DNA of 64,000 bases, from positions 1 through 64,000 of IMG/VR virus record IMGVR_UViG_2852309159_000005; one strand, given 5' to 3'. How positions within the stretch are numbered: the first letter of the stretch is position 1; each line of letters begins with the position of its first letter. The DNA comes from an uncultured virus (IMG/VR IMGVR_UViG_2852309159_000005). Lineage: Duplodnaviria; Heunggongvirae; Uroviricota; Caudoviricetes. The notes under the pieces were generated by a model that worked only from the letters and a program-made list of their open reading frames with translations, did no database searches and was not told where the DNA came from. The position numbers were made by a program, and so were the translations under genes. Shown one piece after another: positions 35,008-64,000 of this stretch.

Positions 35008-35013
35008 ACATCC

Positions 35014-35469: not shown

Positions 35470-35510
35470 GATGAATTCCAGTTTTCGTAATGAAAATAAT
35501 TACAAAATTA

Positions 35511-35577: not shown

Positions 35578-35598
35578 CAAAGAATTAAGGATGAAATA

Positions 35599-35775
35599 AT
35601 GCAAAAAGCAAAAGATATGTATCAGAAGAAAATTAGATTCCCAGAGGATGTGTGCAAGGCAATTCAAGCTAACGGGGATTTAGAGTGTAGAAAATTTAAT
35701 ACGGAGATTATTTATCAACTAAGGAAAGCTTACGGATTGATAGAAAGTAAAAACCCCAGTTGCACGAACAACTGA
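35599..35775 (+). CDS. Arc-like DNA-binding protein
   Basis: KIRFPEDV...RKFNTEIIYQLRKAYG. Confidence 0.75.
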   Translation: MQKAKDMYQKKIRFPEDVCKAIQANGDLECRKFNTEIIYQLRKAYGLIESKNPSCTNN

Positions 35776-35816
35776 GGCTTTACATCAAATAAACTCTTTG
35801 GGCGAGAATAAATGAC

Positions 35817-36389: not shown

Positions 36390-36466
36390 TAGGCACTAAA
36401 AACAGAAAAGCCAACAGGTGCGAACTGCTGGCTAATCCCAAACAAAACCAAAAAGGAAATGTTTCA

Positions 36467-37261
36467 ATGAACGATTTAACTTTAGCATCACATGAAACAA
36501 ATGTCACTATGTCAAGTCGTGAGATTGCAGAATTAACAGGAAAGGCTCACCATCACGTAGTTCGTGACATTGAGAAAATGTTTATGGAACTAGATTTTAA
36601 TTATCCAAAAACGGATGATTATGTTTCTAAAGAGTTTTTTATTAAGCGTAAAAATTACAAGGGTCGTTCTGTTATTGATGAAATAGGATTAGACCAAGAT
36701 CTTACAATGACGTTAATGACTGGATACAGTGTTCCATTGCGCCATAAAGTATCAAAACGCTGGAGGGAGCTTGAGTCAGGGAAAGCAACACCAATTGTTG
36801 CACTTAATGACCCTGAATTCTTGCGTTCTGCTTTATTAAATTACACTGAAAAAGTATTAGCGCTTGAATCATCAAATAAAGAGCTAACAAATAAAGTCGA
36901 GTGTATGTCTAACTTGTTCAAAGAAGGCATGACACCGACTCAATTTTGTAAAATGCTTAACGGTGTAAATACTCAACAAGTTCAAATGTGGTTAGCTGAA
37001 CGCAACTGGTTATTTAACGAAAGCAGGTCAGGTAAAAATATTCGCTGGCGTGTTGCTTCATACGCTCGTGATAAATACATGACAGAAAACCAGAGTGAAA
37101 TTAATCCACATGGTCACGAGCCTTTTATTAAGTATCAACCAGTTTTATTAAAGAAAGGTGCTAAACGCCTTTATGATCTCTATCTTGCTGGTGAACTACC
37201 AATGAAAAAGAACTGGGATGGATTATTTACTCATGACAAGGAATTCAAAGAAGTAGCTTAA
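36467..37261 (+). CDS. Rha/KilA-C antirepressor
   Basis: TMSSREIAELTGKAHHHVVRDI...RWRELE; C-terminal ANT-like domain. Confidence 0.85.
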   Translation: MNDLTLASHETNVTMSSREIAELTGKAHHHVVRDIEKMFMELDFNYPKTDDYVSKEFFIKRKNYKGRSVIDEIGLDQDLTMTLMTGYSVPLRHKVSKRWRELESGKATPIVALNDPEFLRSALLNYTEKVLALESSNKELTNKVECMSNLFKEGMTPTQFCKMLNGVNTQQVQMWLAERNWLFNESRSGKNIRWRVASYARDKYMTENQSEINPHGHEPFIKYQPVLLKKGAKRLYDLYLAGELPMKKNWDGLFTHDKEFKEVA

Positions 37262-37867: not shown

Positions 37868-40800
37868 ATGGCAAATGTAGGCGAAATTGTTTATCAAGTT
37901 CAAATGGATGTTGAGCAACTGCTAACATCTCAGCGTCAGTTAGAGCAACGTCTTAATCGTATGGATAGTAGCTTTAATCGAACGTCTCAGTCGGTAAATA
38001 ATACTGAGCGCTCAATGTTATCTTTATCCAAGGTTGCTGCATCACTTGCCGGCTATCTATCAGCTTCAATGGTTGCTAGTTACTCCGAAGCATGGACTGA
38101 GTTAAACAACAAATTATCTAACTCTGTTCGTGCAAGTGAGTCACTTATTGATGTTACTCAACGAGTATTTGATATCTCTCAAGCAACGCGATCTAGTCTT
38201 GATGCCACAGCAACACTCTACGCACGATTAGAGCGAGGGACGAGAGAATACAATACATCAGCAGAAGACTTAGCAAAATTAACATCCATCATTAACCAAG
38301 GTTTTATCGTATCTGGTGCTACTGCGCAGGAAGCAGAAAACGCCATCATTCAGCTATCACAAGGTATCGCTTCCGGGGTTCTCCGTGGTGAGGAATTTAA
38401 CTCAGTAGCAGAGCAGGGTAGCCGTTTGATGGTTGCGCTTGCTGACTCAATGGGTGTTGGTATTGGTCAGCTGCGCAAGATGGCTGCGGAAGGTAAACTA
38501 ACTACTGATGTTGTTGTGAAAGGATTGCTCTCTCAGGGTGATGCAATCGGTAAAGAGTTTGCTAAAACAACTCGAACAATGTCACAGGCATTTCAAGAGG
38601 CAGGGAACAACTTAACCAAGTTTCTTGGTGAAAACACAACAATAAAGACATCTATTAACGTATTCAGTGATGCTGTAATTACTGTTAGTAAAAAGTTTGG
38701 ATGAACTTAGTTCCGTCTTGACAGTAATCGCTGCGGTGGTTGGTTCAAGATATGTTGGCGCATTAGCTATGGCTACCAAGTCAAAAATTATGATGGCAGC
38801 AGCTTCTCGTCAAGAGTCAGTCGCCCACGCTGCAATCAGCGAAAGCCAGCGAGTATGCTGCAAATATGTCGGTCAGAAAGGCCCAGGCAGATTTAGCTTC
38901 TGCCAGATCGGCCGTTGCTCTCGCTCAAGCAGAGTATAACGTTGCGAAGGGAACTTTAGCGGAAGCAACTGCACTTGATAACTTAATTGCTAAAAAAACA
39001 TTGGCTTCAAAAGCTGCAATAACATTAACTCAAGCAACCCAAGCGCAAACGGCAGCAATGGCAAACTCAGCAGCGGCGGCAAGGTCAGCGTCATTGTCCA
39101 TGGGTTTATTGCGTGGAGCTATGGGAATGTTAGGCGGTCCTGCTGGTGTGGCTATGTTAGCTGGTGCTGCTATATATTACTTTTATCAACAGTCAAAAGA
39201 AGCTAGAGAAGAATCAAATAAGTTTGCTGACGACATAAGAGGTCTTACTGAGGAGTATGAAAAATTCTCTAGAGCAGCAAAAGAAGCGGCTATAGTTGAG
39301 GCTAAAAAACACTTAGAAGTCGCTGATGAAGAAGCTGCAAAACTTAAGTACACGATCAGTTTGATTGAAAAAGAGATTAAAGAATTAAATGATGGATTTG
39401 ATTTATTTGGGGTAAATGCTGATAAGTCAGCTAAATTTACAGACCAACTAAAAACAGCTGTTGCTAATTTAGAAAAGCAAGAGGAAAGAAGGGGTAATAT
39501 TCTCTATAAAATAGAGATGATGCAGTCTGATTTAAATGGAACATTAAAACAAGGAGCAGATCTTCTGCAGAGAGAGTCATCCATATTGCCAAACGCTAAA
39601 GATGCTTGGAATGCTTATGGTTTCTCTATCGAGCGTGCAACCAGACAAAAGAAAGAATTTAATGCACAAAGCTTAATAATGGAGTGGTCAGACAAAGGTC
39701 TTGACTTGAGAAAATCTCTAGAGAGAGAAGCTAAATTAGCTAACGCAAAAAGTGAGATTGACAAAAGAAAGCTACAAGTTGAGTTTTACGCAGAAGATAA
39801 TGGATTGTCAGAGCAAGAGGTAGCATCATTAAATCAATATGCTATAGCTGCACAAGAAGCTCAAGATGCCGCAGCCGAACGCAACAAAACGACCAAGGAA
39901 TCAACCAAAGCCACAGACGCAGCATATGAGGCACTAAAGCGCCAGAGAGAAGAAATTGAGCTTTTAAACAAAGGTTATAAAGATGGTTCTCTTGAAATGG
40001 CTAAGTATGATGCTGTTAAAGCATTGGGTGACAAAGCATCTCCTAAACAGATTGAAAAAGCGGAGCAACTCGCAGAAGAAAAATACAACATTGAGCGTAA
40101 TCTAGCAGATAAGAAAGCCGCGCTTGAGCTTGATTTGGTTGCTAAGGCTAAGGAATCTCACGATAAGCAGTTGGCAGACTTAGAGCGGATAACAAAAGAT
40201 GATGTATCTCTCACTGAACAGGCAGCAAGGCGTAAAGCTGAAATTGAGGCGGAATATCAACAGAAGATAGCCGAAATAAAGGCTAATAACGCTGTCTCAC
40301 CGCAAGATGACATCAAAGGGAAAGTAGACCCTGTTCAGCAACTCAAAAACGAACACGAACGTAAACTTGCACTTATAAAAGAGTACGAAAACCAAAAGGT
40401 TTTAACTCAACAGCAAAGTTTAGAGTTAATGAATGCCGCTAATACTCAATATGAGCAAGACCGGTTAAATGCTCAATGGGAGATATGGCGTAATCAAAGT
40501 CAAGCTAATCAATTCTTAGCTGATGGGTTGGACGCATTAGGACAACGCTCTACTAACGTACTCACGGGGCTATTAACAGGCACACAATCCCTTAATGATG
40601 CTTTCCGTAATGTCGCATTAACCATTGTAGACCAAGCCGTTGGCGCTCTGGTTCAAATGGGTATGCAACAGGTTAAGAATATGGTTACTGAAAGTGCCAT
40701 GCGTAAGGCTTCCAATGCACAAGCTATAGCGGAGGCTACAACTACTGGCGCAGCAATCACAAATGCTATGGCTTCCGGCGGCAGCGACAACCAGTATTGC

Positions 40801-41209
40801 CACTATGGGCTCTGCTGCTACATGGGGTATGGCAGCAATGGCAACAGCTATTCCCGCTATGATTGGCGCTTGCTGGCGCTCGTAAAAATGGCGGGCCCCG
40901 TAAATGCTGGCTCTATGTATCGAGTGGGTGAAGGTGGTAAGCCTGAGATATTCAAAGCATCGAACGGTAATCAGTACATGATACCGGGTGATAATGGTCG
41001 AGTTATTAGCAATCGACAAATGGGTAAAGGTTGGTAATGGGTGTCAGCATGGGTGATATGAACTTTACATTCCAAGTTTCAAGCGCCTAATGGCATCACT
41101 CAAAAGGAAGCACAACAGATACAGCAAATGGTAAGAGGTACGGTTTATGACGTACTTGGTAACGAAATGCGTAGCGGTGGTGCTTTGGAAAAAAGTAAGA
41201 AGTTGGTAA
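37868..41209 (+). CDS. Prophage tape measure protein (several indels)
   Basis: QLSQGIASGVLRGEEFNSVAEQ N-terminal tape-measure domain; C-terminal YRVGEGGKPE; fragments 37868-38704, 38697-38939, 38866-41037. Confidence 0.9.
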
Positions 41210-43601: not shown

Positions 43602-44105
43602 GTAATGCAGGTGAGGCCTTACGCTGTCTTTTGCTATCAAATTGATGGGTTGAAAAAAGAGATTAATCAAGGTCAGTTTCGCGTTCGTATCGCAGGTAAT
43701 GATATGACCGAGGATAGTATTTCCACGGGATTAAGTGCGCCATTAAATGAAGGTGATGTTATTACAATCGTCCCCATAGTTGGTGGTGCTAAATCAGGCG
43801 GGTGGCTAGGCATTATTGGTGGGGCTGCTTTAATTGGCGCATCGTTTTTAATACCGGGCGGATTTTTGGCAACGATGACATCGACCGCATTATTTGCCGC
43901 GGGTGTAGGTGTGGCCGCCGCGGGATTGGCAACCATGTTAACTAAAACACCGCCAGCGCCAAGCATAGAGGGGCGAAACTCAGAGAGTAACCAGTATTTC
44001 AGTTCGTTATCAAATAGAGTCGGGCAAGGCTATCCGGTTCCTATCTGTTATGGCGAGATGGTTGTGGGTTCAAATGTAATATCACAAGGTTTGGAGACTG
44101 TTTAA
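43538..44105 (+). CDS. Tail assembly protein I (frameshifted)
   Basis: IVPIVGGAK...GQGYPVPICYGEMVVGS. Confidence 0.88.
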
Positions 44106-47100
44106 TGGGTAAAGGTGGCGGTGGAGGAAGCACTCCGAGGTTGCTCGATGACAACTTAAAAAACAAACAATTTCTTAATGTCATCGATTTAGTTTCAGAA
44201 GGGCCAATAGAAGGCCCTGTAGGTGGTATGTCAGGTTTTCTATTGAATGGAACGCCTGTTGTAGATGAAGATGGTAATCCAAATATTCATGGTGTTGAGG
44301 TTCAGTGGCGAGCAGGAACGCAAACGCAAGAACCATTAGAGGACTTTTCTTTTGTAGAAAAAGAAATCCCTGTCAATGTAGAGGTAAAAAAAAGCACACC
44401 AATTTTACGCACCATTTCAGATCAGGAAACTGACCGCGTTAGATTCACTTTGGGTGTTTCTGCTCTTGTTAGTCAAGATGACAAGGGAAATCAGGACAAT
44501 GCTACGGTAGAAATGCTTATTGAGGTTAATGATGGCTCTGGCTGGGTGCATGCGGAAAAGGTAACAATAGGACCAGGTTAAAATAAGCGGTCAATATCTT
44601 GAGTCTCATATCATCGATGCGCCTAAAAAGAAACCTTTCCAAATTAGAGTCTCACGATTAACAGATGATAGTAAAAGTGATCTGCTGAAAAACGGAACGG
44701 TATGGGCAAGCTACACAGAAATAACTGACGCTAAATTCTCTTACCCTAATTCTGCTGTCGTAGGGATGAAAATCGATAAATCCCAATACGGTGATACACC
44801 CAATCGCACCTATCATATCAAAGGGATGATTATCCAAGTTCCAGATAACTATGATCCCGAGTCCCGTACTTATACAGGCATCTGGACTGGTCGCTTCAAG
44901 CCAGCATGGTCTAATAACCCTGCATGGGTTTTTTACGATTTAGTCACCAATGAACGATACGGTATAGGAGAGATGATCGGCTCGTTTGGTGTTGATAAAT
45001 TCGCGCTATATGCCATTGCTCGTTACTGTGATGAATTGGTTGATGATGGGTTTGGCAACAAAGAGCCTCGCTTTACTTTTAATGCCTACATTACCTCTCA
45101 ACGAAAAGCCAAAGAAGTGCTTGATGACTTAGCGTCTGTATTTCGCGGTATGCCTTTATGGGACGGACAGCAATTAACGTGCTTTCAAGATAGACCATCA
45201 GATCCAGTATGGACGTACACAAACTCAAATGTTATTGATGGCAAATTTAAATACACATCAACAGCGAAATCAGCCCGTCATAATGCTATCGAGGTATCAT
45301 GGATAAACCAGAGTAATGGATGGAGTGAAGAAAGAGAATTTATCCAAGATGATGATCTTATTCAGCGCTTCGGTGGTGTAAATGTTAAGAAAGTTACTGC
45401 TTTTGGTTGCACTAGCCGCGGACAGGCTCACAGAGTGGGTAAATGGATATTACAGACAGAAAAGCTGGAGAAAGATAGCGTTACATTCTCAACAGGAAGA
45501 GAGGGGGTTAACTGCATTTCTGGCGATATTATTGAAGTAGCAGACGATAGCTTTTCAGGAGTGAAGGTAGGAGGTCGGGTTTTATCAGTTAATGGTAGCA
45601 CTATTACTGTTGATGCGCCTATAGATTGGAAATATGACGATAAAGGCACTTTCTCATTTTTAGGGGCATCAGGTGGGTTCGAGAAAGTAGACATTCAATC
45701 TATCGATGGTGATATTGTCACTTTGCGGGAGATACCGAATGGATTGAAACAGTATGGTGTATTTTCCATTTCAAAAAGCACATTAACTACAAGATTATTT
45801 CGTGTAATTTCCATTACTGAGGACAATGAAGGAAATTACCTATACAACTGCATTCAGCATGAACCGCAAAAGGAAAGCATTGTTGATAATGGAGTTGATT
45901 TTACTGGAAACCCGCCAACACAGAATATTATTCGCATTCCTAATATAGAGCGACTTTCCATTGCCTATGTCAATGACAGCTCACAAGTTCAGGCTAGGGC
46001 AATGTGGATGACAACAACCATCAACAGAAATATTTCATTTAATGTCACTCTTTATAAAGACAGTAAGGTTGTATCTACTGGTAATACCACAGATTTAGAG
46101 TACTACTTTAATGGGCTTGAAGCTGGTGACTATCTTGTCGGTGTGAGAGGCAGAGATACTAATGGGATGCTTGGTAATGAATCAAAAGTCCAGATGGTTA
46201 TTGGTACGCCAAGTGCGCCTAGCTCAATAATTGTTGAGTCTGGTTTTTTTGAAATAAAGTTAATCCCTCATATCGCCGCGCCACACACTCTAAATACCGA
46301 GTTTGAGTTCTGGTTTTCTGGTGAAAGAAGAATAGACAATGTTAATGAAATAGAGTCAAAGGCTGATTTCTTAGGTCGCGCTAAGTTTTGGACAAAATGG
46401 CAGTTAAAGCCGGGGCACGATTACTGGTTTTATGTAAGAAGCGTAAATGAATATGGAAAGTCTCATTTTGTGGAGGCTAAGGGGCAAGCTGATGATAACA
46501 CGGAGGCTATTCTCGATGAGTTAGACGGCCAATTCATGACAACAGAGGCAGGTAAACAACTCAGCGAAGAGCTGAAATGGAATACGGAGTCTATTGCTGA
46601 ACTTGTTAATGCCACCTATGAATTATCTACTGATTTACTCGTTAGAGATGGTAATGCGCAGGCTGGTATTACTCAACTACAACAACTCCGAGTTTCTGAT
46701 AATGAAGCATGGGCGCAGGATATTAAGCGTGTATATGCATCTATTGATGAGAATGCCGCTGAGGTTAAACGCGCCCAAAATTCTATTGTGGATTTAAACA
46801 AAGCATTTGCTGAGGATAGAACCAGAGTACAGGCTCGATTTGACGAACAAGAGGGCATGATTGAAGAGAAGATGCAGGCCACGTTTGAGCAATCAGGCGA
46901 CGGTGTTGTGACCCACTCGATTAATATCACCATTAAACACGATGGCGTGAGTTATAACGCAGCAGGGCAAGTAATTAGCGCTCAGGTTAAGAACGGCAAG
47001 CTTGAAAGTTTCATTGGCTATAACGCGAATAACTTTGCTTGGTATAACCCTGTAAATGGCAAGATGGAATTATTCATGTATGCCAAAAATGGGCAGTTGT

Positions 47101-47795
47101 TTATTCGAGACTTATTTATCGAAGATGGCTCTATTACAAATGCAAAAATAGGGAATGTGATTCAATCTAATAATTATTTAAATGGAAGGCCGAGCTGGAT
47201 AATTAATAAAAATGGGTTTGCTGAATTCCAGAATATAAAAGCGAGAGGAGAAATAGAGGCAACTTCTGGACGTTTAAAAAATGTTGTTATTGAAGAAAGT
47301 TGTGACATTCTCGGTAAGCTAAAGGTTGAGAATTTAGAGGGGAATATAGTCACAGTTACTCAGGACGTTTATCACAACCTCTCATTCTCTCATAACAATA
47401 TTGTTGAGTTATTTAAAGTTAAACGCAGAACACAAAAGTGTTTTATATGGGTGCAAGGAGCATTAAATCCTTACGAAAGAATACCCAATAATGGCGTGAA
47501 ACCAGAAAATCGTTCAGCATTTGCATATCGTGCACCGTTTTACAGAAATGGAGCAGGGGCGGCTGATATCTATATTGATGGAGTTATCCAGCCTAGGCCG
47601 AGCATCTACAACATGGAAGACACATCAACATCTGATTTTTATGCTGTAAATGAGTTTGTACTGGAATTAAGTCCGGGTGAAGGAGTTGCAAGTATTGGTA
47701 TAAAAATCCCTCAAGGTGGCAGTGAAACGACACGGTTTATTATGCGAGCCAGAATAATCGTATTCCCAGATAACCAAGACGTTATTTTTAATTAA
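44105..47795 (+). CDS. Central tail tip/host specificity protein J (frameshift near 44578)
   Basis: MGKGGGG...SEGPIEG; WSNNPAW; FGCTSRGQAHR; DGSITNAKIG. Confidence 0.92.
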
Positions 47796-49463: not shown

Positions 49464-49636
49464 AACAGGTCCGGTTAGTTTTTGGAGAGTATAGCAGGGT
49501 GTGGAATTAATGGGACGATTTTGGGACAAGCAACATGAAGCAGCATAAGGCAACTTCAAGTAACTTTAGGTAAGGTGGGACGTGTGAACGCTTGGTGAGA
49601 CTGTATTTAGTTGATATTAAAGCATAATTCTACGCT

Positions 49637-49681
49637 CTTCTAAGCCGTAGGTCACAGGTTCGAATCCTGTAGGGCGTACCA
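49637..49681 (+). other. 3' half of tRNA-Arg(UCU): prophage attR core and probable satellite attL
   Basis: CTTCTAAGCCGTAGGTCACAGGTTCGAATCCTGTAGGGCGTACCA gives anticodon loop, T-arm and CCA; the 5' half is absent. Confidence 0.88.
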
Positions 49682-49795
49682 TTCTCAAGTATTTCAACGT
49701 CTACAACAGTCCATAAAAACCCTTATAAAATCAGCTATCACAAGAATTCCTAGTATTTCAAGGTCTAGTTACATCTATTGAAATCTACATATATG

Positions 49796-49816
49796 TGGGG
49801 GCATAATTGGGGGCAT
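49796..49816 (+). promoter_or_regulatory. P4-type integrase arm sites TGGGGGCAT x2
   Basis: tgggggcataattgggggcat upstream of int; inverted copy at ~49839. Confidence 0.65.
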
Positions 49817-49847: not shown

Positions 49848-51059
49848 ATGAAGCTAACAGCCAGACAAGTAGAGACTTCCAAGCCAAAAGAGAAAGCTTA
49901 TAAACTTTCTGACGGTGGGGGCATGTATTTAGAAGTTGCTCCGAATGGTTCTAAGTATTGGCGTATGAAATATAGATATGCTGGTAAAGAGAAAAGGCTG
50001 GCTTTAGGTGTATACCCATCAATATCACTCGCACAAGCTAGGGCGAAGAGAGAAGAAGCCAAGCGCATATTAGCGTTAGGTGATGATCCATCTTTAGTGA
50101 AGAAAGCAGAAAAGAGAGAGAAAGAATCTCAAGTAAATAATAGCTTTGAAAAAATCACGCTTGAATGGCATGACTATAAAAAGCCGAATTGGTCAAAAGG
50201 TTATGCGGATGATTTACTAGAAGCCTTCCAGAAAGATATCTTTCCTTATATTGGTAAAGTTAGCATTACGGAAATTAAACCGTTAGATATGTTAGAAGTG
50301 CTTCGGAAGTTAGAAAAACGCGGCGTGTTGGATAAACTTAAAAAGATAAGGCAGGCATGTAACCAAGTATTCCGCTATGCAATTGTGACAGGACGGGCCG
50401 AGTATAATCCTGCATCAGAATTAGCCGGCGCACTGTCTACTCCAAAAGCTAAGCATTTTCCTCACTTAAATGTGAATGAGTTACCTGAGTTTTTACAGGC
50501 ACTATCTGTATGTAGTGGAAGTAAGATCACTCAGATTGCGACAAAGCTATTAATGATAACAGGCGTTCGTACTATTGAGCTTAGAGCGGCTGAATGGTCA
50601 GAAATTGATTTTGATAAAGCTATTTGGGAAATTCCAAAAGAACGTATGAAAATGCGTCGCCCTCACATGGTGCCATTATCTACACAGGCCTTAGAATTAT
50701 TCAAAGAAATACAAACCATAACAGGAAAGTTTAAGTATATCTTTCATGGTAGGAATGATGCTTCTAAGCCAATGAGTGAAGCGGCCATAAATCAGGTTAT
50801 CAAGCGTATTGGTTATGATGGTAGAGCCACAGGTCACGGATTCAGACATACAATGAGCACCATCCTACACGAGCAAGGCTATAACACTGCATGGATTGAG
50901 ACACAACTTGCACACGTTGATAAAAACTCTATTCGTGGAACGTATAACCATGCTCAGTATATTGATGGCCGTAGAGAAATGCTTCAATGGTACGCTGATT
51001 ATATGGATACTTTAGAGAACGGGGATAATGTTGTGCACGGTAACTTTAAACGTGCTTAA
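49848..51059 (+). CDS. int: P4/CP4-57 IntA-family integrase
   Basis: YKLSDGGGMYLEV...GSKYWRMKYR; TGVRTIE; HGFRH; YNHAQY. Confidence 0.95.
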   Translation: MKLTARQVETSKPKEKAYKLSDGGGMYLEVAPNGSKYWRMKYRYAGKEKRLALGVYPSISLAQARAKREEAKRILALGDDPSLVKKAEKREKESQVNNSFEKITLEWHDYKKPNWSKGYADDLLEAFQKDIFPYIGKVSITEIKPLDMLEVLRKLEKRGVLDKLKKIRQACNQVFRYAIVTGRAEYNPASELAGALSTPKAKHFPHLNVNELPEFLQALSVCSGSKITQIATKLLMITGVRTIELRAAEWSEIDFDKAIWEIPKERMKMRRPHMVPLSTQALELFKEIQTITGKFKYIFHGRNDASKPMSEAAINQVIKRIGYDGRATGHGFRHTMSTILHEQGYNTAWIETQLAHVDKNSIRGTYNHAQYIDGRREMLQWYADYMDTLENGDNVVHGNFKRA

Positions 51060-52061: not shown

Positions 52062-52091
52062 AACCTTATACATTTATGTATAGGGTTTTTT
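52062..52091 (+). terminator. Intrinsic terminator just upstream of alpA
   Basis: AACCTTATACA-TTTA-TGTATAGGGTT followed by a T-run. Confidence 0.7.
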
Positions 52092-52126
52092 CGCATGTCT
52101 TTTCATATCACATTAAGGAAAATACT

Positions 52127-52324
52127 ATGAATAATCTGATTAGGCTTTCAGAGGTTTTGCGACGCACAGGTTACAGCAAAGCTTGGATTTATAGATTAAT
52201 TAAAGAAAATGACTTTCCTAAACAAGTTAAAATAGGAGCCCGTTCTATTGCTTTCGTTGAGTCGGAAGTCGATGAATGGATCGCTAATAAGATTGCTGAA
52301 TCACGTTCTGGTGAGGTGGCATAA
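52127..52324 (+). CDS. alpA: AlpA-family regulator/excisionase
   Basis: LIRLSEVLRRTGYSKAWIYRLI...FPKQVKIGARSIAFVESEVDEWI. Confidence 0.95.
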   Translation: MNNLIRLSEVLRRTGYSKAWIYRLIKENDFPKQVKIGARSIAFVESEVDEWIANKIAESRSGEVA

Positions 52325-52733: not shown

Positions 52734-53429
52734 ATGAAACTGAAAAATAACAGCTTAAGTGCTGGTGGATTCGCTCACCCTGAAATCAGCCAAGATCCTA
52801 TTTTAATTCAACACAAAACTGAGCCGAGAATAGATAGTCGCTTGTTTGCTAAGCGAGCTGGATTACAACATCGTAGCCTATACAAATTAATTAAAAATAA
52901 CATTAAGCAACTAAGAGAGTTCGGATCACTGCCGTCATTTGAAATCGCAGCAGTGAAAGAAACGGGCGCACGAGGAATTAAGCACAACCGTTATTATCTG
53001 CTTAATGAAAGCCAATTTGATTTTATGTGCCGTATTGTTCGCGGTCGTAATCATGAGCAGATGACGCAATTCAAGCTGGACGTTACCAAAGCATTCAGCA
53101 AGAAACGCGCCGCTGAACCTATCCGCCGTGAATATTTGCCACATTACCATGAGTCACGCGACGCACTCAGAGACTTAGGCGCAGAGAAACATCATTACAT
53201 CAATTTAGCCCGTACAGAGAACCGATTAACAGGCTTACTCACTGGCGAACGCGCCAGCGCAGACGAGCAACAATTAGGTTTATTGGTCTGTATGCAGAAA
53301 ATCGAACGGGCAGCATTTCAAGATGCGATTGATTCGGGCTTATCGGCTACTCAGGCATTGCGAGAGGTTAGCAAACGCATTGAGCAGTTCGCTAGTTTAA
53401 TGAGTCCTACGGTGCGAATTGGTGGCTAA
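52734..53429 (+). CDS. Rha-family regulator
   Basis: EPRIDSRLFA...YYLLNESQ...FKLDVTKAF. Confidence 0.8.
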   Translation: MKLKNNSLSAGGFAHPEISQDPILIQHKTEPRIDSRLFAKRAGLQHRSLYKLIKNNIKQLREFGSLPSFEIAAVKETGARGIKHNRYYLLNESQFDFMCRIVRGRNHEQMTQFKLDVTKAFSKKRAAEPIRREYLPHYHESRDALRDLGAEKHHYINLARTENRLTGLLTGERASADEQQLGLLVCMQKIERAAFQDAIDSGLSATQALREVSKRIEQFASLMSPTVRIGG

Positions 53430-54034
53430 TATGATGAATATCGCAGCTAATGCCTACCAAGTGAATGATTCCCTACTGGCAGGTAATAACGTAAGTTCAA
53501 CTTACACCACGACTAATACGGTAGCTTTAAACTATGGTATTACGGGCAGTCAATCAGCGAAAATTTACGCCAATCAATCAATCCTAACCACCGTTGGAGG
53601 ATGGGATAACAGCGATAACCTAAAAACGTGGAGAATTTACACCATTTATTAAAGGTGATTTTTCTCACCTTTCTAAAGTCGGAAAATCTCGCTATTTATC
53701 GAGTGAAATTGAGTTTTTTGAGTCCATAAAAAAGGGCAGCCAATCGGCTACCCTTGGAAACGTCGATATTAAATACCGAGCAAGTGAGAACTATAAGAAT
53801 AGTATTCATCTTGTTATCGGTAAAGATGACAACCTTGAGTTAATACAAAAATGTGCAATACATCACTTGCACTTATGGGTAATTGTTGGCTATAGTGATC
53901 AGGCACTAGCAAAATCTAGTGTCAGAATTGGCGTTCTGAATCAGTTACTGGCGACACATGACGCGCCTTGCGTCTTTTTTTGTGTCCATGCCTACGCACA
54001 CCCATTAAATGCGGTATTATATCGCGCTGAATCT

Positions 54035-54114
54035 ATGGTGGCGGCAGCAGAGCAACCGAAAGGTTGGCTGGATTCCAGTAACTCCAGTAACGCCAACTCT
54101 ACTGTCGTCACCAC
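54035..54114 (+). ncRNA. C4/P4 CI-type antisense immunity RNA
   Basis: Long outer stem with a GAAA-tetraloop hairpin; CCAGTAAC and AACGCCAA are complementary to GTTACTGG/TTGGCGTT found upstream (53928-53951) and downstream (54123-54161); PLE-like promoter TTGCAC..TATAGT at 53867-53896. Confidence 0.8.
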
Positions 54115-54172
54115 CCCCGAAATTGGCGTTTCAAGTGGTGACTCCTTAACTAAGTTACTGGAGATCATCGTT

Positions 54173-54364
54173 ATGATGGCAACCCCTACCCACACTCAAT
54201 TCAAATTTTTGTTTCTGAGTATTAAACGCTCAGATACAACCGCTAAACCTTGTCGTATTGCTGTTACAGCATCGAATGAACACGATGCAAGACTGATGCT
54301 TGTACGTGATTATATCCTGTCATTCGCTGGTCGCTTACCTGCTCAGGAGGTGGCTCATGCGTAA
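54173..54364 (+). CDS. Icd-like cell division inhibitor (C-terminal part of the Ash-like ORF 53867-54364)
   Basis: FKFLFL...ASNEHDARLML...LSFAGRLP. Confidence 0.8.
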   Translation: MMATPTHTQFKFLFLSIKRSDTTAKPCRIAVTASNEHDARLMLVRDYILSFAGRLPAQEVAHA

Positions 54365-54530
54365 CCCTCAACCTAACGATTTCTACACGCATAAAAATAA
54401 TAGCGAAACCGTCAAAGTTCTATCAGTTCAATTTAACCGTGTGACCTTTCAGCGAGACGGCTTTGATAATCCTGTCATTGTTCCATTAAGCCAGTTCAGC
54501 AACGAATACATTTATTCGGGGAGGGCTTAA
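54357..54530 (+). CDS. DUF4222-like protein
   Basis: PQPNDFY...RVTFQRDGF...PLSQF. Confidence 0.65.
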   Translation: MRNPQPNDFYTHKNNSETVKVLSVQFNRVTFQRDGFDNPVIVPLSQFSNEYIYSGRA

Positions 54531-54963
54531 TTATGGGGCGTTATCCAGAAAACTATAAGCGTATTCAAGCCGAAATTTCGAACATGTTAGGCAATGACCT
54601 CCTTTTATCTTCAGAAGAACGTAGCCGTGACCGATTACTTAGGGTTCGGAAAGGTATGGCTCATATTCTTAGTGAAGTATTTCCTCTAATTGATGATCCC
54701 AAAAAAACAAGAACTCTATTACTGGTTGGAAGCCATTAGCCGTATCAGTGGCGCAGAAGCCGTAGACGCTAAATCGAAGGGGGAAGCATGAGCAAACCTA
54801 TTCCATTGGACATAGCTGCATACAAGGCGCAGCAAAATAATTCATTACTTGCCGTTATCTTAGAGTTAGCAAGTAAAGATTGTTCGCGGGAGTTAATCGA
54901 CCTCGTTTCTATTGCGTATGACTTTAATGCGGAAATATGTGAATCCCTTGAGGAGGCGACCAA

Positions 54964-55173
54964 ATGAAAACAATCAAGTTAAATATTGGTCACTTATCTA
55001 CCTTGGAAGAAGTCGAACACATCAACGAAGAACTTCAAGCGTTGTTAATCCCACTGTTAACAGCTGTAGAGAATGAAGCTGAGACGGATACGCATTTTAT
55101 GCTGAGAGCAGTCAACCGCTCAGTGTGTGCTCAAGGAAAAGAAATCACAAAGTTGGTGGAGGTGATGAAATGA
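54964..55173 (+). CDS. Hypothetical satellite protein
   Basis: Coupled ORF with RBS. Confidence 0.55.
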   Translation: MKTIKLNIGHLSTLEEVEHINEELQALLIPLLTAVENEAETDTHFMLRAVNRSVCAQGKEITKLVEVMK

Positions 55174-55754
55174 GACAAGTCACTATCAATGCCACCAGCT
55201 TAAGTCCATTCATGTATCAAGGTAAGCGAGTTGTCACCTTTGCCATGATTGACGAGGTACACCAACGCCCGAAAGGTACAGCAAAGCGCACATTCAACAC
55301 GCATAAAAAGCACTTTATTGATGGAGTGGATTATTTTTTGCTCACTAAGTACGTCATACGTACCGAGTTACCCGAACTGGAAATAGCTGGAAAAGCAAAA
55401 GAGTTAATGCTTATCACTGAATCAGGTTACTTGATGATAGCCAAGCCATTTACAGATGATTTGTCGTGGCAGGTTCAGCGCTCAATGGTTAACAGCTACT
55501 TTCGTTTGTCTGACTTTCCAGAAATTAAACACATTCAAATACCCACGCTGGCGGAACTTGAAGCCATGCCAATTGGTGAGGCTCAGAACTTGATTAGCCG
55601 CTTAGAGGCTGATTCTTATCAAGGGCACGGTAGGCGTGGCAGCTATGCCATGAACCTACGTCGCAAAGAGAAGAAAGCACTTAAACCAATGGTAATCGCC
55701 ATTGAGCAAGCCTCACAGCTACACATTCAGGATATGGGAGATTATCACTCATGA
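55170..55754 (+). CDS. ORF6N-domain antirepressor-like protein
   Basis: YQGKRVVTFAMIDEVHQRPKGTA...LITESGYLMIAKPFTDDLSWQVQR. Confidence 0.85.
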   Translation: MRQVTINATSLSPFMYQGKRVVTFAMIDEVHQRPKGTAKRTFNTHKKHFIDGVDYFLLTKYVIRTELPELEIAGKAKELMLITESGYLMIAKPFTDDLSWQVQRSMVNSYFRLSDFPEIKHIQIPTLAELEAMPIGEAQNLISRLEADSYQGHGRRGSYAMNLRRKEKKALKPMVIAIEQASQLHIQDMGDYHS

Positions 55755-56728: not shown

Positions 56729-57073
56729 ATGATAACGAAGAATTTTAAAGTTAATTCACTAGCGAATAGCTACGCAGCCGCTATTTACCACGATATTACC
56801 ACACGTAATGGCGGTGATTGGTTTTCGATGAAGGTAGGCAACAAAACGATTGAAGTTGCCATTATTGACGGTGTGAAAGGTATTCGAATGCTCGTTGATA
56901 GCTATTTGCTGAAAGCCTTAAAGGGGCAATATCCCACATGGGAGGCAGTTGCTATTAGCTTGATAGAGCAATGTGTCATTAATGGATATGTCACAGGTTA
57001 TGGTCGAGAGGTGTGGCAAAGCATGATTAATGATATGGGCGACTCTTTAGCTGATAAGGGGGCGTTTCAATGA
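56729..57073 (+). CDS. Hypothetical protein preceding the primase
   Basis: RBS; ATGA overlap with the primase. Confidence 0.6.
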   Translation: MITKNFKVNSLANSYAAAIYHDITTRNGGDWFSMKVGNKTIEVAIIDGVKGIRMLVDSYLLKALKGQYPTWEAVAISLIEQCVINGYVTGYGREVWQSMINDMGDSLADKGAFQ

Positions 57074-59818
57074 AGCCGATTGATGTTATCCGTGAGGTGA
57101 AGCTGAAAGCTAACGGACAATGGCAAGCTATATTATCTCACCTTGAGGCAGAAGTGCCCCTAAACACGCACACGGCTTGCCCTCATTGTGGTGGTAAAGA
57201 CCGGTTTAGATTTGATAACAAGGACGGTAATGGCACGTTTATTTGTAATCAGTGCGGTTCTGGTGATGGATTAGATCTCGTTCAGCGTGTGTTAGGTGTC
57301 AGTGTAACCGAAGCTGCAAAAGAGGTTGCTAACATAATTGGTATTGATACCCGTTCAGCGTGTCCACCAGCCTACCGTCGTTCTGAGATAAAAGCACAAC
57401 AAGACGAACTGAAAGCGCAGCAAGCCGAAAAACAAGCTAACGAGAAGAGAGAGAAGCATAAACGCTTTATTGAACGGTATAACCGCACTATTGCCAATGT
57501 TCAACGTGGGAGATCTGACTATCTCAAGGCTAAGGGGCTGCATGGTTTTGAAATGGATTTATTACAGGACGGTTCTCTTATCATTCCATTATTGGACGCT
57601 GGTGGCGTTATTACTGGCGCACAAACTATTAAGCCTAATGGTGATAAGCGTTTACTGTCAGATAGCTCAAAGTCAGGCAGTTATTACCCCATCAATGAGC
57701 CTGTAAACGTCTCTACGGTGATTATCGCTGAAGGATTAGCAACCGCCCTAACGTGTCACTTAATCCAACCAGAAGCGCACACAGTTGCGGCAATTGATGC
57801 GGGAAACCTCATTCATGTAGCTAAGGTAATGCGAGTTAAGTATCCAGAGAGCAAGATTATTATTGCTGGGGATAACGATATTAAGCCAGACCAAGACAAT
57901 ACAGGGAAATTAGCGGCAGAAAAGGCAGCTAAGGCGGTTAATGGTGTCGCAGTTTTACCCCCAACTGATGATAAAGCCGATTGGGATGACTACCGCCTAT
58001 CACACGGTATTGAGGCGGCAAGACAGGCATTTAATGGCCAAGTGGATCAGCAAGCAGGTGAAATAGTGGAAGAGAATAACGTGATCCACATTGACGCAAA
58101 AAAGAAAGTCAGACCTGACGATGACTTAGCCCCATTTTTTGATAAGCGTCATGGTGGTTTGTATTACATCGAACGCAAGCAAAACAATACGACGGGCGAG
58201 ATTGACGAAAAAGAAACGTGGTTTTCGGATGAAATGGCTACGGTAGGTATTGGCTCTGATGGCAAAGACAGCTATTTAGTTATCGAGATGAAGCAAGAAG
58301 GTAGCAACCGCATAATTTATGAAGCCATTCCGAGACGTGAACTAGGTTCGCCTCAAGGGTGGGGGAGGTTACGCTCCCGTGGCGTTAATATTACAACAAA
58401 GCGTGGTCAATTGGATTTATTAGCTAACTACCTTCAACGGAAAGGAAAGCGCGACGAATGGACGATCACACATACCGCAGGTTGGCATGATGGAGCGTAT
58501 GTGATGCCCGATGGTCATATTATTGGTACACCTAGCCGCCCTGTTGCCTTTTGCGGCGGAACGTCTGCCGTTGCGGGTTATATCGTCAGGGGAACCGCTG
58601 AAAGCTGGCGGAAGAATGTCGGTAATTTAATGAAAGGCAACCAATCTATGATTTTAGGTGGTTTAGTTGCGTTAGCTGCCCCACTGAACTCATTATCGGG
58701 CGGTAGCTCGTTTGGCATTCACCTATTCGCTCAATCCTCAGCAGGGAAAACAACTACTGTAGAAGCGGCTTCAAGTATCTACGGTGTACCCGATGAACTG
58801 AAATTAACATGGGATGCGACAAAGTACGGGTTAACGATTGAAGCCGCCTCTCGAAATGATGGATTTATGCCAATTGATGAAATTGGGCAGGGTAACGATG
58901 TGCGGCATGTGGCAGGAAGTGCCTACAGTTTATTTAATGGTACAGGGCGTATTCAAGGTAATAAAGACGGGGGAAACAAAGCCGTTTTACGTTGGGCGAT
59001 TGTGGCGTTATCAACGGGTGAGGAAGATTTTGAAACTTACCTCATTCGTAATGGTGTTACCCCAAAAGCAGGGCAATTAGTGCGACTGGTGAGTGTGCCA
59101 TTTACCGATACTGTCGAGTTTCACAGCCTTGATGATGGTGATTTGCATTCACGAGCAATAAAACGCGCATCAACGCAGCATTGCGGGGCAGTTGGTAGAG
59201 CATGGATTGAGTATTTAGCCAACAATCAGGACATGGCCAACCAGAAAGTGACCGTCAAAGAAAACGAATGGTTATCGAGTTTACCCGAAGAGGCGTCACC
59301 ACAGGTTAAGCGAGTCCGCTACCCGTTTTGCCATGTTAGACGCTACCGCAGAGCTATCAGCCTCAATTACGGGTTGGGATAGTGGCGAATGTAGCCGATT
59401 TATTCGTAATAGCTTCAATGAATGGCTAGAGAACTATGGCACAGGAAACCGAGAAAAATATCAAGTCGTTAAACGGGCAAGGGATTTTATTCAACGCTAT
59501 GGATTAAATCGCTTTCAGCCATACACCTATGGGAAGCGCAACGGAGATTTAGACCGAGTTTACGCAGGAAGAATAACAAACCTTGCGGGTTACTTGGTTT
59601 CTGGTCGCAGAGAGGACGGCAAGGACGAATATCATATTATCCCGTCAGTATTTGAAGATGAAATACTCTCAGGTATTCAAAAGAAATTGGGGGCGGAAGC
59701 GCTCGAAGAGGCAGGTATTTTAGTCAGACCGGAATCAGGGCGTGTAGACGGTAAAACTATCAGCATTAATGGTAGTCAGCAGCGATTTGTTGTCTTAATT
59801 GATAGCGAGGAAGAATAA
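57070..59818 (+). CDS. Primase-helicase (Zn finger, TOPRIM, DUF927); frameshift near 59315-59330
   Basis: CPHCGGKDRFRFD; AEGLATA; AGDND; GWHDGAYVMPDG; SSAGKTT. Confidence 0.92.
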
Positions 59819-59857
59819 CCAGCCAGAACAGAATCCCCGTGATGAATTAAAAACGTT

Positions 59858-60099
59858 GGGATAAGTGGGATAACGGGATAAGAATTAAAAAAGATAATAA
59901 TATTATTAAGTTAAGTTACTTCTATTTATCCCATGTTATCCCAAGTTACCCCAAATCAAATGATAATAATTTGTTACAAATGTTAATCAAAAAGCAAAGT
60001 TATCCCAAAAATAAAAAGTCTGGGATAAGAAATCGAGGTGTTTGGGATAAGTTAACTTGATGATATTAAATGAAAATAAGCAACTTATCCCGTTATCCC
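59858..60099. repeat. Satellite replication origin: ten GGGATAA/TTATCCC iterons around AT-rich spacers
   Basis: GGGATAA at 59858, 59867, 59875, 60022, 60044; TTATCCC at 59926, 59936, 60000, 60085, 60093. Confidence 0.85.
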
Positions 60100-60137
60100 A
60101 AAGAAAAATCGTTTTTCGCCTATAGAGAGATATTTAA

Positions 60138-60576
60138 ATGAGCACTCAAATACTCACACTAAAACGTAAAAAATCCACCAGCAACGAACACACCAAAAAG
60201 CTTGCAAACTAAAACGCCACAGGAAGCCTCGCAGCAACCGAAGAAGAAAAATAAGGCAGATGTTCACGCGAAGAAGAAACAACACCGTATTGACCGTATA
60301 GCGAAGCACTGGACGATATTTAATGAGCCAGAGGCTAAACCACTGATGATAGGTATCAAGGAAGTCATGATTGCTGAGGTTAAAGATAAAGGGTTGGATA
60401 TTCCAGAGAGCCATATTAAACAGGGATTACGATCATACATTAGTCGTAAAACCTATCTGAAAGCCCTTACTCTGGGCGGTAATCGTTTTGATATGAACGG
60501 GCAGCCTAAAGGAGAAATCACACCTCAACAACAAGCATTAGCAAAACAAATGCTGGTGGAATGGGGGAGACAATAA
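60138..60576 (+). CDS. ProQ/FinO-domain protein (5' frameshift)
   Basis: KPLMIGI...LRSYISRKTYLKAL..GGNRFDMNGQPKGEIT. Confidence 0.85.
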
Positions 60577-60697: not shown

Positions 60698-60970
60698 TGT
60701 GTTGATTTAAATTTATACCAGAACAGTTATAATGTTTCACAATACGCAATGAATTAATAAATTGATGCAAAAGGTGAAATGTTATGAGCCAATCTCAAAA
60801 AAAACATTCAGTCATTCTTACCCCGTCACAATCTGAGCTATTGAAATTTTTGTTACCCCAAAGAGCAAGCAAACAACCCTAGCCACAGAAAAGTAACGTT
60901 ACATAGTATTGCACGTAGAGCATTAGATATAGGTTTAGATATGATGCAAAAAAATCATTAAGGAATATTT

Positions 60971-61312
60971 ATGACAGGAAAATTTATTCAACAATTTGAG
61001 CGTAAAAATGCCATCGTGAATATAAATACATCGGATGGCATAAAGTCACTTGCTGTCGTGTTTCGTCTCCCCAAAGACCCTAATACACAAAGTTATCTTC
61101 GAATGATCCAGGCTATTCCTGAAATGTCACCTACGGAAATTTTGCTTGAGGTTATCGAAGCATGGGAATTTGATGAGTCGCTTAACTCAGCCAATATGAC
61201 TAAGTTGATTGATAATTGTCCTCAGGCCGCATTTGCCATCATGGAAGCGTTTGGGCGTTTGATTCATTCTCGTGAAATACAACAAATCTGGGGGCAAAAA
61301 TGGCTGATGTAG
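60971..61312 (+). CDS. Phage tail assembly chaperone (TAC_4-like)
   Basis: EVIEAWEFDESLNSANMTKLIDNCPQAAFAI; overlaps the tape measure start. Confidence 0.65.
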   Translation: MTGKFIQQFERKNAIVNINTSDGIKSLAVVFRLPKDPNTQSYLRMIQAIPEMSPTEILLEVIEAWEFDESLNSANMTKLIDNCPQAAFAIMEAFGRLIHSREIQQIWGQKWLM

Positions 61313-64000
61313 CAACAATTTCGCTTGAGGTGAGAACGTCTGACTTAGAGCGCGGTACGCAAAAGTTAAAAGAGTTTGGAGATACAGCCGAAAAGGTGAG
61401 TAGTTTCTTCGCGAAATTTAAATGACCAGTTTAATAAAGGGGTTGGTCACCAAAAAAAAATTTCTGATGTAATAAAAAAGCAAAGGGAAGAATTTGATAA
61501 TTTACTTAACTCGATAAATCCAACCAATAAAGCGTTTCAAAAACTAGATGAATGGCAAGCTAAATTAGCTAGCGCTAGCAAAAAAGGTATTTACCCAAGT
61601 GATGAGATTGCAAAGTATAACGCCATACTTGAGCAGACTAGAGATAAATTAACACGAGTTAATATGTCCCTTACTGCTGAAGGGCAGGCGCTATTAGCTC
61701 AAGAGGCGGCAACAAATAGAGCTAAGCGAGCTGCTGATGATTTTTTAAATTCACTGAAAAATCAAACTGAAATCATAGGAAAAACGAGGACAGAGATTTT
61801 AGAGTTAAAAGCAGCACAACTTGGTGTGTCGCAACAAGCCGCGCCGATGATCAATAAGCTAAAAGAGCAAGAAAAAGCCTTTATGAATGGCTCAATTACC
61901 ATTGGCCAATATCGAAACGCTATGCGGCAATTGCCAGCCCAAATGACAGATATTGTTACGTCATTAGCATCAGGAATGCCTGTTTGGATGGTGATGATAC
62001 AACAAGGGGGGCAGATAAAGGACTCATTTGGTGGTATAGGTAATTCATTGAAGGCTGTAACTTCATTAATCACTCCGTTAAATGTAGGGCTTGCTGCCGC
62101 TGCTTTAGCCGTGGGAGGTTTGAGTTATGCGACATTCAAAGCCCAGATGGTACAGGAAGCCTTTAACCGAGCATTAATAACATCAGGTAAGTATGCTGGG
62201 CTTTCTCGAGGGGAAATTATTGGTTATGCGAACACCATTACTCAAGCTGGGCTAAGTGCTGATTCAGCCACAGAATCACTTACTAAGCTATTAGACGCGG
62301 GGTTAAAAATAGGTGTCGACATTGGCAAGGCTGGAAATGCTATTGCGGAATTTTCCCGTTATTCAGGTAAAAGCATTGATTCGCTTGTCTCGCATTTTGC
62401 ACGATTATCTAATGATCCGTATGGTGGTTCTATTGAACTAAATAAACAGTATCGCTATTTAAGCGCTTCTGTATTACAGCACATTAAAGAACTAGAAGAC
62501 CAAGGAAAGACCACGGAAGCCGTAACATATGCTACTGACGCATTAAGTGGAGCGATGGCAGATCGCGCAAATGAAATACGTTCAAGCATGGGGACACTAC
62601 CAAGCTTTTTTGATGAGATTGGACGTGCTGCTAATAAAATGTGGGATTCGGTGATGGGGCTTGGTGCTGATCCTTCCAAAGCTGAACGATTAGCTAAACT
62701 AGAACAACAAATAAAGTTTGCTAAATCTGATCCTCGGAGGGGTACAGATAAAAGAAAAGGGCTTTCTTATAAAGATGATAAAGAATTGGAACTTCTAGAA
62801 AAGGAAAGGGATGAGTTACTAAAATCAATTGAAGCTGATAAAAAGGCAGCAGAACTCCAAGAGCGTAGTATTAACAACCAAGTATATTTTAATCAACTGG
62901 TTGATAAAGGCACAGATAATGCCGAGAAACGCAGGAGGGAGCACGAAAAATTAAATAAAGCTATACAGGATAATATTGAGCTAGCGAAAAAAGGTGAAGT
63001 CAAACTCTGGACAGATGAACAAATAAAAATGGCCAGAGAAGGAATTGATAAAGCTTTTAAGGATCCGGTTAAACGTAAACCGACTTTTCATAAAGCTGCT
63101 TTTGCAGGAATGCGCCGTGATGAAGGCACTCAAAGTCATGTCATTGCGTTAAAAGCTGAGCTTGAGATGTTGAGTCAAGAAAGCCGACATATAGGCACAA
63201 TTAGTCAGCAACGTAGGGCATTATGGCAAGAGCAAGCTAAGTTTCAAATTCTTGAGCAAGCCAATAAAGAACGAACACTGAGCTTGGAAGAACGAGCCTT
63301 ATTAGCAAGAAAAGACTCAATATTGGCAGAAAAAGAAAAGGCCGCCAGTATTGGAGATCAGATAGAGCAACAGAAACAGTTAAATCAGTTACGTTATTCC
63401 AATGATGACCTTAAAGCTGAGATCGAACTACGCAAAGCAACGATAGGAATGACTAACGAACAAATAGCACAACAAAGAGAACTACTCAAATTAAAAATGG
63501 AGTGGACTAAAAAAGGAGGGGCTGAAACGGATGAAGAATACCTACGTGGTGTAGATTTAATTCAGGAAAAATATGAAACAGAAAGCTGGCTACGTGAGCA
63601 ATGGCGCGAAGGAGTTAAGAAAGCATATGCAGAATATGTGATTAGTGTTACAGATGCAAATGCGGCAGCACAACAATTAACTAAACAAGCTTTTGATAGC
63701 ATGACGGGGGCAATGACTGACTTTCTAACGAAAAGCAAAGCTAGTTTTAAAGATTATGCTGCTAGTTTCTTTAATTTGGCAACAAAAATGATCGTCCAGC
63801 TTACAACGATAAGAATGTTAGAGGCTGGGCTTGGTGGTACAACACTTGGTAATTTTTTAGGGATAAAAGGGCATGCCACAGGTGGCTATACTGGTGATGG
63901 TGGTAAATATGACCCCGCAGGTGTAGTACATAAAGGCGAGTTCGTCTTTACCAAGGAAGCAACGCAACGACTAGGTGTGGATAATCTCTATCGACTAATG
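61300..64000 (+). CDS. Lambda gpH-type tape measure protein carried by the satellite (extra T near 61405; runs off the window, absent from the ORF track)
   Basis: Hand translation: GQYRNAMRQLPAQMTDIVTSLASG...QQGGQIKDSFGG and HATGGYTGDGGKYDPAGVVHKGEFVFTKEATQRLGVDNLYRLM, both gpH hallmarks; frame open from ~61406 to the end. Confidence 0.92.

Follow-up and report, generated by a model that had tools for sequence, protein, structure and literature searches.

A PICI-type satellite with a tail assembly chaperone gene and a tape measure gene of its own, possibly for building chimeric tails

We analysed a window comprising positions 1 to 64,000 of an uncultured virus record of 73,413 bases (IMG/VR IMGVR_UViG_2852309159_000005), and also read the sequence of the record past position 64000. 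It contains a satellite of the phage-inducible chromosomal island (PICI) type, approximately 19.8 kb long, and the variable slot of this satellite, between a ProQ/FinO-family gene and a gene for a 139-residue protein, holds two overlapping phage tail genes, one for a tail assembly chaperone (TAC) and one for a tape measure protein (Table 1). An earlier note on this DNA, made from its letters, had described a TAC-like open reading frame (ORF) overlapping a gpH-type tape measure gene after an origin and ProQ, and had seen no tail tube, neck or gpT-like gene before the pair. Both observations held up. The tape measure protein matches TMP_2 (PF06791) with 204.6 bits (cut-off 30.2), Tape_meas_lam_C (PF09718) with 52 bits (cut-off 23) and PHROG 24 at an E-value of 1e-218. 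The TAC matches Phage_TAC_4 with 36 bits (cut-off 21.1), in an alignment limited to columns 74-117 of the 124 in the profile, and its gene overlaps the tape measure gene by 13 bases, from the start of the latter at 61300 to its own stop at 61312. Iterons precede ProQ, and no tail tube, neck or T-like gene was recognised ahead of the module in scans of the satellite's ORFs. The note had also called the tape measure gene near-full-length, with at least ~900 codons; the gene is a tape measure gene, but a full-length one, its ~1,002 codons (counted through a frame break considered below) comparing with 976-981 in three Proteus/Providencia prophage loci (L002, L003 and L005).

The TAC and tape measure genes are internal to the satellite: attachment (att) sites, arm repeats and a conserved backbone enclose the slot. 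Nor are they the product of misassembly, since contigs of three sequencing runs bridge both junctions. The tRNA portion of attL lacks the 5' half of the tRNA and for that reason scores 18.7 bits against the Rfam tRNA model, under its gathering score of 29, and ARAGORN finds no whole tRNA there. A 20-bp arm-type repeat lies approximately 115 bases inside the left end and recurs exactly approximately 60 bases inside the right end; by our own arithmetic, the chance expectation for an exact 20-mer common to both ends is ~1e-5. Arm-type integrase sites on either side of attP would give this layout of att sites and repeats. Elements of Providencia, Proteus myxofaciens, Photorhabdus and others share the primase, its C-terminal ORF, ProQ, the 139-residue protein and the right-arm genes at 60-97% identity, and the backbone is present on both sides of the slot in five related loci (L050, L051, L052, L054 and L056). 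We aligned the contigs of four public sequencing runs (X1-X4, from four studies; X1 may be the source sample of the record) on positions 60100-67200, and all 30 bins were covered in all four. In X1, X3 and X4, contigs of 11.8-12.0 kb bridge from upstream of ProQ through TAC into the 5' part of the tape measure gene, and others, 3.5-5.9 kb long, connect its 3' end with a 162-residue ORF, an AbiD gene and the 139-residue gene; X2 is represented by short contigs only (~0.5-1.2 kb). Among the 23 runs listed, 20 contain part of the stretch and 14 contain at least half of the sampled words.

Table 1. Features of the satellite. Positions past 64000 are those of the contig.
Feature	Position	Strand	Description
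attL	49630..49682	+	3' part of tRNA gene: UCU anticodon loop, T-arm, acceptor 3' strand, CCA; direct reading
Arm-type repeat	49797..49816	+	20 bp, GGGGGCAT twice; exact copy at contig 69373-69392
Tyrosine integrase	49848..51059	+	Phage_integrase, Phage_int_M, Arm-DNA-bind_3; PHROG 1
AlpA-family regulator	52076..52324	+	PF05930, 74 bits
Regulatory block (Rha, Ash, DUF4222, ORF6N antirepressor)	52734..55754	+	profile matches
Primase (Zn ribbon, Toprim, DUF927)	57070..59382	+	C-terminal part in overlapping ORF 59333-59818
Iteron cluster	59845..60104		direct and inverted copies of GTTATCCCAA, between primase and ProQ
ProQ/FinO-family protein	60202..60576	+	left edge of variable slot; PF04352, 61.5 bits
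Palindrome, promoter-like site (60706-60733) and small regulator-like ORF	60698..60970	+	ORF in two pieces in the record
Tail assembly chaperone (TAC)	60971..61312	+	113 aa; Pfam Phage_TAC_4 PF08748
Tape measure protein	61300..64309 (window holds to 64000)	+	~1,002 codons, lambda-H type
Secreted-type protein	contig 64357-64845	+	162 aa; signal-peptide-like N-terminus (own reading)
Abi_2/AbiD	contig 65423-66463	+	PF07751, 172 bits; PADLOC AbiD, E 7e-58
139-aa gene	contig 66699-67118	-	right edge of slot; 82-93% identical in L050, L051, L052, L054, L056
Right-arm genes of 62, 121 and 75 aa	contig 67929-69357	+	conserved in relatives
attR	contig 69450-69468		past the window; 19-base copy of tRNA 3' end

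The module has a promoter-like site and ribosome-binding sites of its own. Removing one letter at 60856, which is missing from all four aligned runs, makes the two pieces of the small regulator-like ORF upstream of TAC into one frame; together with the palindrome and promoter-like site, this ORF may perhaps be the module's own regulator. Foldseek searches with a model of the TAC found no match in the PDB at an E-value of 0.001 or better, and a sequence search of the PDB gave chance-level rows only. The tape measure gene is followed by the 162-residue ORF, AbiD, the satellite's right arm and attR, and not by an M-L-K-I-J operon. The 162-residue protein has no family match in profile scans, and an Atlas search yielded unnamed clusters only. 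AbiD, a defence gene, adds to what the earlier note had seen in the slot.

The remainder of the satellite shows the traits of Gram-negative PICIs: an integrase gene beside a tRNA-derived att site, terminal direct repeats, AlpA downstream of the integrase, and a primase gene with iterons. The iteron cluster is likely, from its sequence, to be the origin of replication. ProQ is 84-89% identical in L050, L051, L052 and L085, and the relatives adjoin tRNA-Ser or tRNA-Leu genes. TAC and the tape measure are the only phage structural genes recognised; no capsid, portal, terminase or lysis genes were found among the scanned ORFs of the element. NCBIfam had no match for 14 of 15 proteins. We rejected a P4-type identity by the int-alpA-primase order; the P4 capsid-size genes sid, psu and delta were not recognised. 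The ORF that holds the C-terminal part of the primase covers positions 754-885 of PHROG 1139, and the split is present in the window and in every relative examined; it is therefore conserved, and a programmed shift is possible there.

The arrangement recurs. With the 139-residue protein as query, 17 of 301 genomes in the GTDB family of Proteus myxofaciens gave a match. Neighbourhoods were taken from 15 of these (G003, which is the same as L052, and G283, with two tiny contigs, were left out); three of them, two short contigs and an isolated fragment, gave no information on the slot. The 12 others, the window's element and seven further related loci (L050-L056) make 20 informative elements, of which 11 have a tape-measure-like gene in the slot from ProQ to the 139-residue gene, so the synteny, for which the earlier note had asked other genomes to be searched, is a repeated one. 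In 10 of the 20 the gene is a whole ORF of 600-1,245 residues (the window's, L050, L052, L085, L087, L090, L091, L093, L096 and L097), and one other element, L092, has a baseplate hub only. Three unrelated tape measure families occupy the slot: PHROG 24 in the window's element only, PHROG 1107 in seven elements, and PHROG 2276/2013 in three (L085, L087 and L090), among which L087 has an SLT transglycosylase domain and L090 is accompanied by a baseplate hub of PHROG 196.

The slot varies from 0.6 to 12.7 kb in length, and it also holds an insertion sequence (IS) transposase gene, defence genes and tail-fibre fragments. In L050, L051 and L052 the order is a protein of ~170 residues, one of 112-113 residues (PHROG 19131), the tape measure (PHROG 1107/1538; 1,111 residues in L050, 395 + 736 residues, split, in L051, and 1,086 residues in L052) and one of 121-122 residues that belongs to PHROG 5, 'tail completion or Neck1', with a further protein of 190 residues in L050 and L051. 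Members from Xenorhabdus, Photorhabdus and Morganella that lack a tape measure carry a small terminase gene, and two of these three also have tail-fibre fragments. The Xenorhabdus and Photorhabdus slots have short tail-fibre genes (L053:4921-5655 and L054:15873-16427), the small terminase and two paralogous proteins of ~200 residues. Directly after the 1,245-residue tape measure of L093 is a 246-residue ORF (L093:9929-10669) that matches PHROG 13702, 'terminase large subunit'. The end of the slot near the 139-residue gene is a small defence hotspot, with AbiD in the window's element, ShosA in L095 (12421-13332) and SoFic in L087 (12614-13798).

We computed dN/dS between L050, L051 and L052 and obtained 0.18-0.25 for the tape measure, 0.04-0.25 for the 112-residue gene, 0.12-0.15 for the 121-residue gene and, in the backbone, 0.23-0.29 for the primase. 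By this measure, purifying selection acts on the module in the relatives. The module has been exchanged independently of the backbone, because the primases of L050 and L051 are near-identical (pS 0.002) and their tape measures have diverged (pS 0.2-0.3). The relatives' modules have similarities to the prophage that lies next to the satellite in the window–the 121-residue protein is 58-64% identical to the prophage's tail-completion/Neck1 gene (30006-30374), and the C-terminal halves of the tape measures are 33-56% identical to the prophage's tape measure. In the phage, Neck1 lies upstream of the tube gene and the tape measure beyond it, whereas in the satellites the two are direct neighbours and Neck1 comes after the tape measure; with its gene order rearranged in this way, the relatives' module is unlike a colinear captured phage fragment. 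A second tape measure of the satellite's family occurs in genomes G003 (43% identity) and G001 (38%), and none was found in G002.

Alignment of the window's tape measure to that of a lambda-like prophage of Proteus mirabilis ATCC 29906 (L002), read in steps of 50 residues, gives 90-98% identity over the first 200 residues, then mostly 20-36% through the middle with a single step at 52%, then 60% and 94% near the C-terminus, and 38% at the extreme C-terminus. A search with the protein yielded 48 loci, none of which exceeds 34% identity over the central ~550 residues, and the nearest sequenced phages, mostly T1-like, have tape measure identities of up to 38%. As these alignments read, the window's tape measure is a mosaic with phage-like ends and a private centre. 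In L002 the homologous gene is followed by M and L (Pfam matches) and then by ORFs of the size of K, I and J. In X1, X3 and X4, depth rises ~1.3- to 2-fold over the end segments that the two tape measures share, and the contigs break there with identical loose ends. From the raised depth and the identical ends we read a second tape measure gene, which points to a prophage-borne copy in the same genomes as the satellite. The helper is likely a lambda-like Proteus prophage of the L002 kind, and not the neighbouring prophage. The earlier note had argued that the satellite's tape measure was not copied from that neighbour and might be aimed at another helper; the former is borne out by their families (PHROG 1107 in the prophage, PHROG 24 in the satellite), and the near-identity of the ends to the Proteus mirabilis protein lends support to the latter.

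A satellite with tail genes of this kind is described in Vibrio cholerae. According to Mathur, Boyd et al. (Nature 2026, PMC12987554), the TMP, TAC and BhuB proteins of the PICI-like element (PLE) replace parts of the phage ICP1, giving chimeric tails; transduction falls by 96-99% when tmp is deleted from PLE, and PLE virions contain the PLE tape measure. The likeness to the window's satellite is one of gene content, a tape measure and a TAC side by side in a satellite. Their backbones are unrelated, the window's being of the int-AlpA-primase PICI type; the helper of PLE is a myophage, whereas that of the window's satellite is presumably a siphophage; and the tape measures of PLE and ICP1 have 20% identity, as reported there, whereas the window's is of lambda-H type and its ends reach 98% identity with a prophage tape measure. 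The window's lineage, as known from its genes, also differs in having a swappable slot, three tape measure families and defence genes.

Other satellites provide partial parallels. EcCIMP1-type PICIs, as described by Pick, Stadel and Raivio (ISME J 2025, PMC11773190), have a backbone that resembles the window's; that paper describes EcCIMP1 as lacking phage-like structural genes, with only two hypothetical virion-morphogenesis candidates in common with its P22-like helper. A relative in E. coli ECamp52 (L099, 3454300-3466027) has a primase with ~65% DNA identity, followed by ProQ, PerC and SieB, and no tape measure; this element lies beside tRNA-Gly, and PerC and super-infection exclusion protein B are named as such in the RefSeq annotation. 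PLE-like elements and some capsid-forming PICIs (cf-PICIs) have putative tmp genes according to the legend of Extended Data Fig. 10 in PMC12987554, and a December 2025 preprint (PMC12822802) reports a tape measure in the EPIP satellites of Mycolicibacterium and states that satellite tape measures were known only in PLE11 and its EPIPs. The cf-PICIs and EPIPs also encode capsid and packaging proteins, whereas the window's element has no recognised ones. Our literature searches turned up neither this lineage nor a tape measure slot in Proteus/Providencia PICIs; the elements drawn in Extended Data Fig. 10 of PMC12987554 could include one. Among phages, the window's pair resembles lambda gpG/gpGT-gpH and HK97 gp13-gp16 in its TMP_2, Tape_meas_lam_C and Phage_TAC_4 domains and in having the TAC translationally coupled just upstream, and it differs in having no tube gene before it, no M-L-K-I-J after it and no separate T extension.

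With the probabilities tilting slightly in its favour, we read the TAC and tape measure genes as a working module of the PICI-type satellite, for building chimeric tails, rather than as prophage debris. When a helper siphophage is induced, the satellite would make its own tape measure and the cognate chaperone. The phage-like ends of the tape measure would dock on the tail-tip and tail-completion parts of the helper, the satellite's ruler and chaperone would assemble with the helper's tube, tip and fibres, and in tails that carry satellite DNA the private centre would replace the helper's ruler and DNA-ejection conduit. The ends would confer compatibility with the helper, and the private centre and cognate TAC would confer distinctness. 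We infer that the module is expressed, is incorporated into virions and benefits the satellite; candidate gains are evading a tape-measure-directed blocker (its own or the recipient's), evading superinfection exclusion, and telling satellite particles from helper particles.

A wider proposal, which we put forward tentatively and with the chances lying against it, is that this lineage, found in Proteus, Providencia and related enterobacteria, maintains a swappable 'tail-core' slot, filled with lumen and DNA-ejection parts that match the helper type. The phage-like ends would fit the satellite's ruler to helper tails, and the private centre would give satellite particles a different ejection conduit. 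Cells that stop the helper by exclusion directed at its tape measure or by blocking tails, helper lysogens among them, could then be open to satellite DNA. The slot has been seen to carry either a tape measure of the lambda-H or PHROG-1107 type, together with a chaperone and a tail-completion protein, or one that bears a transglycosylase domain and is accompanied by a baseplate hub.

Several findings weigh against a working module. The tape measure is split in L051, is reduced to a remnant in two of the 20 informative elements (a 135-residue C-terminal piece in L056, and a 343-residue piece beside an IS transposase gene in L084), and was not recognised in six (L053, L054, L055, L088, L089 and L095); because it is split, remnant or missing in these relatives, the module is dispensable for some members. 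The window's type, TAC_4 with PHROG 24, was found in one element family only. Its TAC has only five relatives in 5.8 billion clusters (all five with PF08748) and none in an alignment search of species-representative genomes. The 112-residue protein of the relatives, which by its gene position is a candidate chaperone, has no similarity to the TAC in BLASTP, and a fold search with its AF2 model (pLDDT 84) gave generic helical matches, with no TAC among the 50 rows listed. In phage lambda, a programmed -1 frameshift in G/GT yields a longer G-T form. No longer form of this kind was found for the window's TAC, and a separate T ORF is absent; the -1 frame at the end of TAC is the tape measure's own frame, and a canonical slippery heptamer was not seen by eye. 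Profile scans of the ORFs in the window's element recognised neither a terminase nor a capsid-remodelling gene, and tblastn found no homologues of the terS or capsid-remodelling genes of L053, L054 and L055 in the window's contig. No RNA run contained the stretch among the public runs searched.

The last point of this kind is that the tape measure gene has a frameshift in this record, one extra letter near 61404 by DNA alignment, which splits it into a 41-codon ORF (61300-61425) and an 881-codon ORF that starts at 61664. The 41-codon ORF is 82-88% identical to the first 34 residues of Proteus/Providencia prophage tape measures (L002-L005), and the frame that follows carries on the same alignment at 97% identity. 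The extra letter is missing in all three runs that cover the site (X1, X2 and X4; X3 has no contig there). Elsewhere, one letter at 60168 is missing from three of the four aligned runs, and other frame breaks in the record fall in the portal, tape measure and J genes of the prophage and in the chromosomal gene GrpB. Because the letter is missing in the other runs and several genes are split in the record, the record probably has indel errors, the break being an assembly error and the tape measure gene whole in nature. GrpB (contig 71920-72535) is in two overlapping pieces, which cover profile positions 2-103 and 101-159.

Among the rival explanations, the one that we consider hardly credible is that the pair belongs to a separate decayed prophage beside the satellite, or that the junction is an artefact, both of which the earlier note had named as ways in which its account could fail. 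A prophage and a satellite do lie in tandem, and the frame breaks in portal, the prophage tape measure, J and GrpB would suit decay or faulty assembly. Past position 64000, however, we read the satellite's right arm and attR, with no att remnant in between and nothing like a tail operon, so the pair is not part of a separate prophage, and the contigs of X1, X3 and X4 bridge both junctions. We excluded decay and misassembly on the conserved right arm, attR and these contigs. A better, if still quite improbable, alternative is that the slot is a recombination hotspot that collects pieces of helpers, and that TAC and the tape measure are functionless passengers in it. The highly variable length and content of the slot, the remnant or split copies in L051, L056 and L084, and the frameshift in the window's record can all be counted in favour of passengers. 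Yet whole ORFs are present in 10 of the 13 elements with any tape measure sequence, the dN/dS of the tape measure is low, three unrelated families have come to the same place, the module has its own promoter-like and ribosome-binding sites, the gene order is rearranged relative to phages, and the frameshift is missing from other samples.

It is also possible, and we think unlikely, that the module interferes with the helper, the satellite's tape measure (with or without the TAC) acting as a dominant-negative competitor for the helper's tail-tip and tail-completion partners, lowering helper titre and being unneeded for the satellite's own transfer. A protein whose N-terminal and near-C-terminal segments are near-identical to a Proteus prophage tape measure, and whose centre and last 70 residues differ, could be such a competitor. 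Defence genes share the slot (AbiD, and ShosA and SoFic in relatives), and tail assembly is a known target of the satellite and prophage defences Tab, Tai and Rta, as reported in PMC10884400, PMC12987554 and PMC11364771. The tail-assembly blockers described in those papers are, however, small, and not rulers of 1,000 residues with a chaperone, and the PLE tape measure is reported to be built into satellite virions and required for transfer. Purifying selection over the whole length of such long ORFs agrees better with a structural role. Interference and substitution could also go together.

Before 2026, satellites were thought to use the tails of their helpers unaltered, and the PLEs of Vibrio cholerae are the only case in which a satellite-encoded tape measure has been shown in particles. 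If the window's pair is a working tail module, what is new is that the same strategy would exist in an unrelated and widespread PICI lineage parasitising siphophages of Proteus, Providencia and their relatives. Also new is that at least three unrelated tape measure families, and sometimes a baseplate hub, replace one another in a single slot. The mosaic of ends and centre points to the segments in which a tape measure has to match the helper, and ordinary laboratory lysogens would offer a tractable system in which to study what a satellite needs a ruler and DNA-ejection conduit of its own for.

The siphophage prophage that lies upstream, in tandem with the satellite, occupies positions 1-49682 of the window; the tRNA-derived site at 49630-49682 is also its right end, and its integrase gene is cut by the start of the contig. 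Three of its genes are split in the record, portal (25073-26002 and 25923-26450), tape measure (37868-38704 and 38866-41037) and J (44105-44581 and 44766-47795), probably by the same indel problem as in the satellite. Between the tail tube region and the tape measure gene of the prophage is a non-structural block (32491-37261) with a lower GC content (0.33-0.37), which encodes unknown proteins, a DNA-binding protein, an Arc-like protein and two antirepressors.

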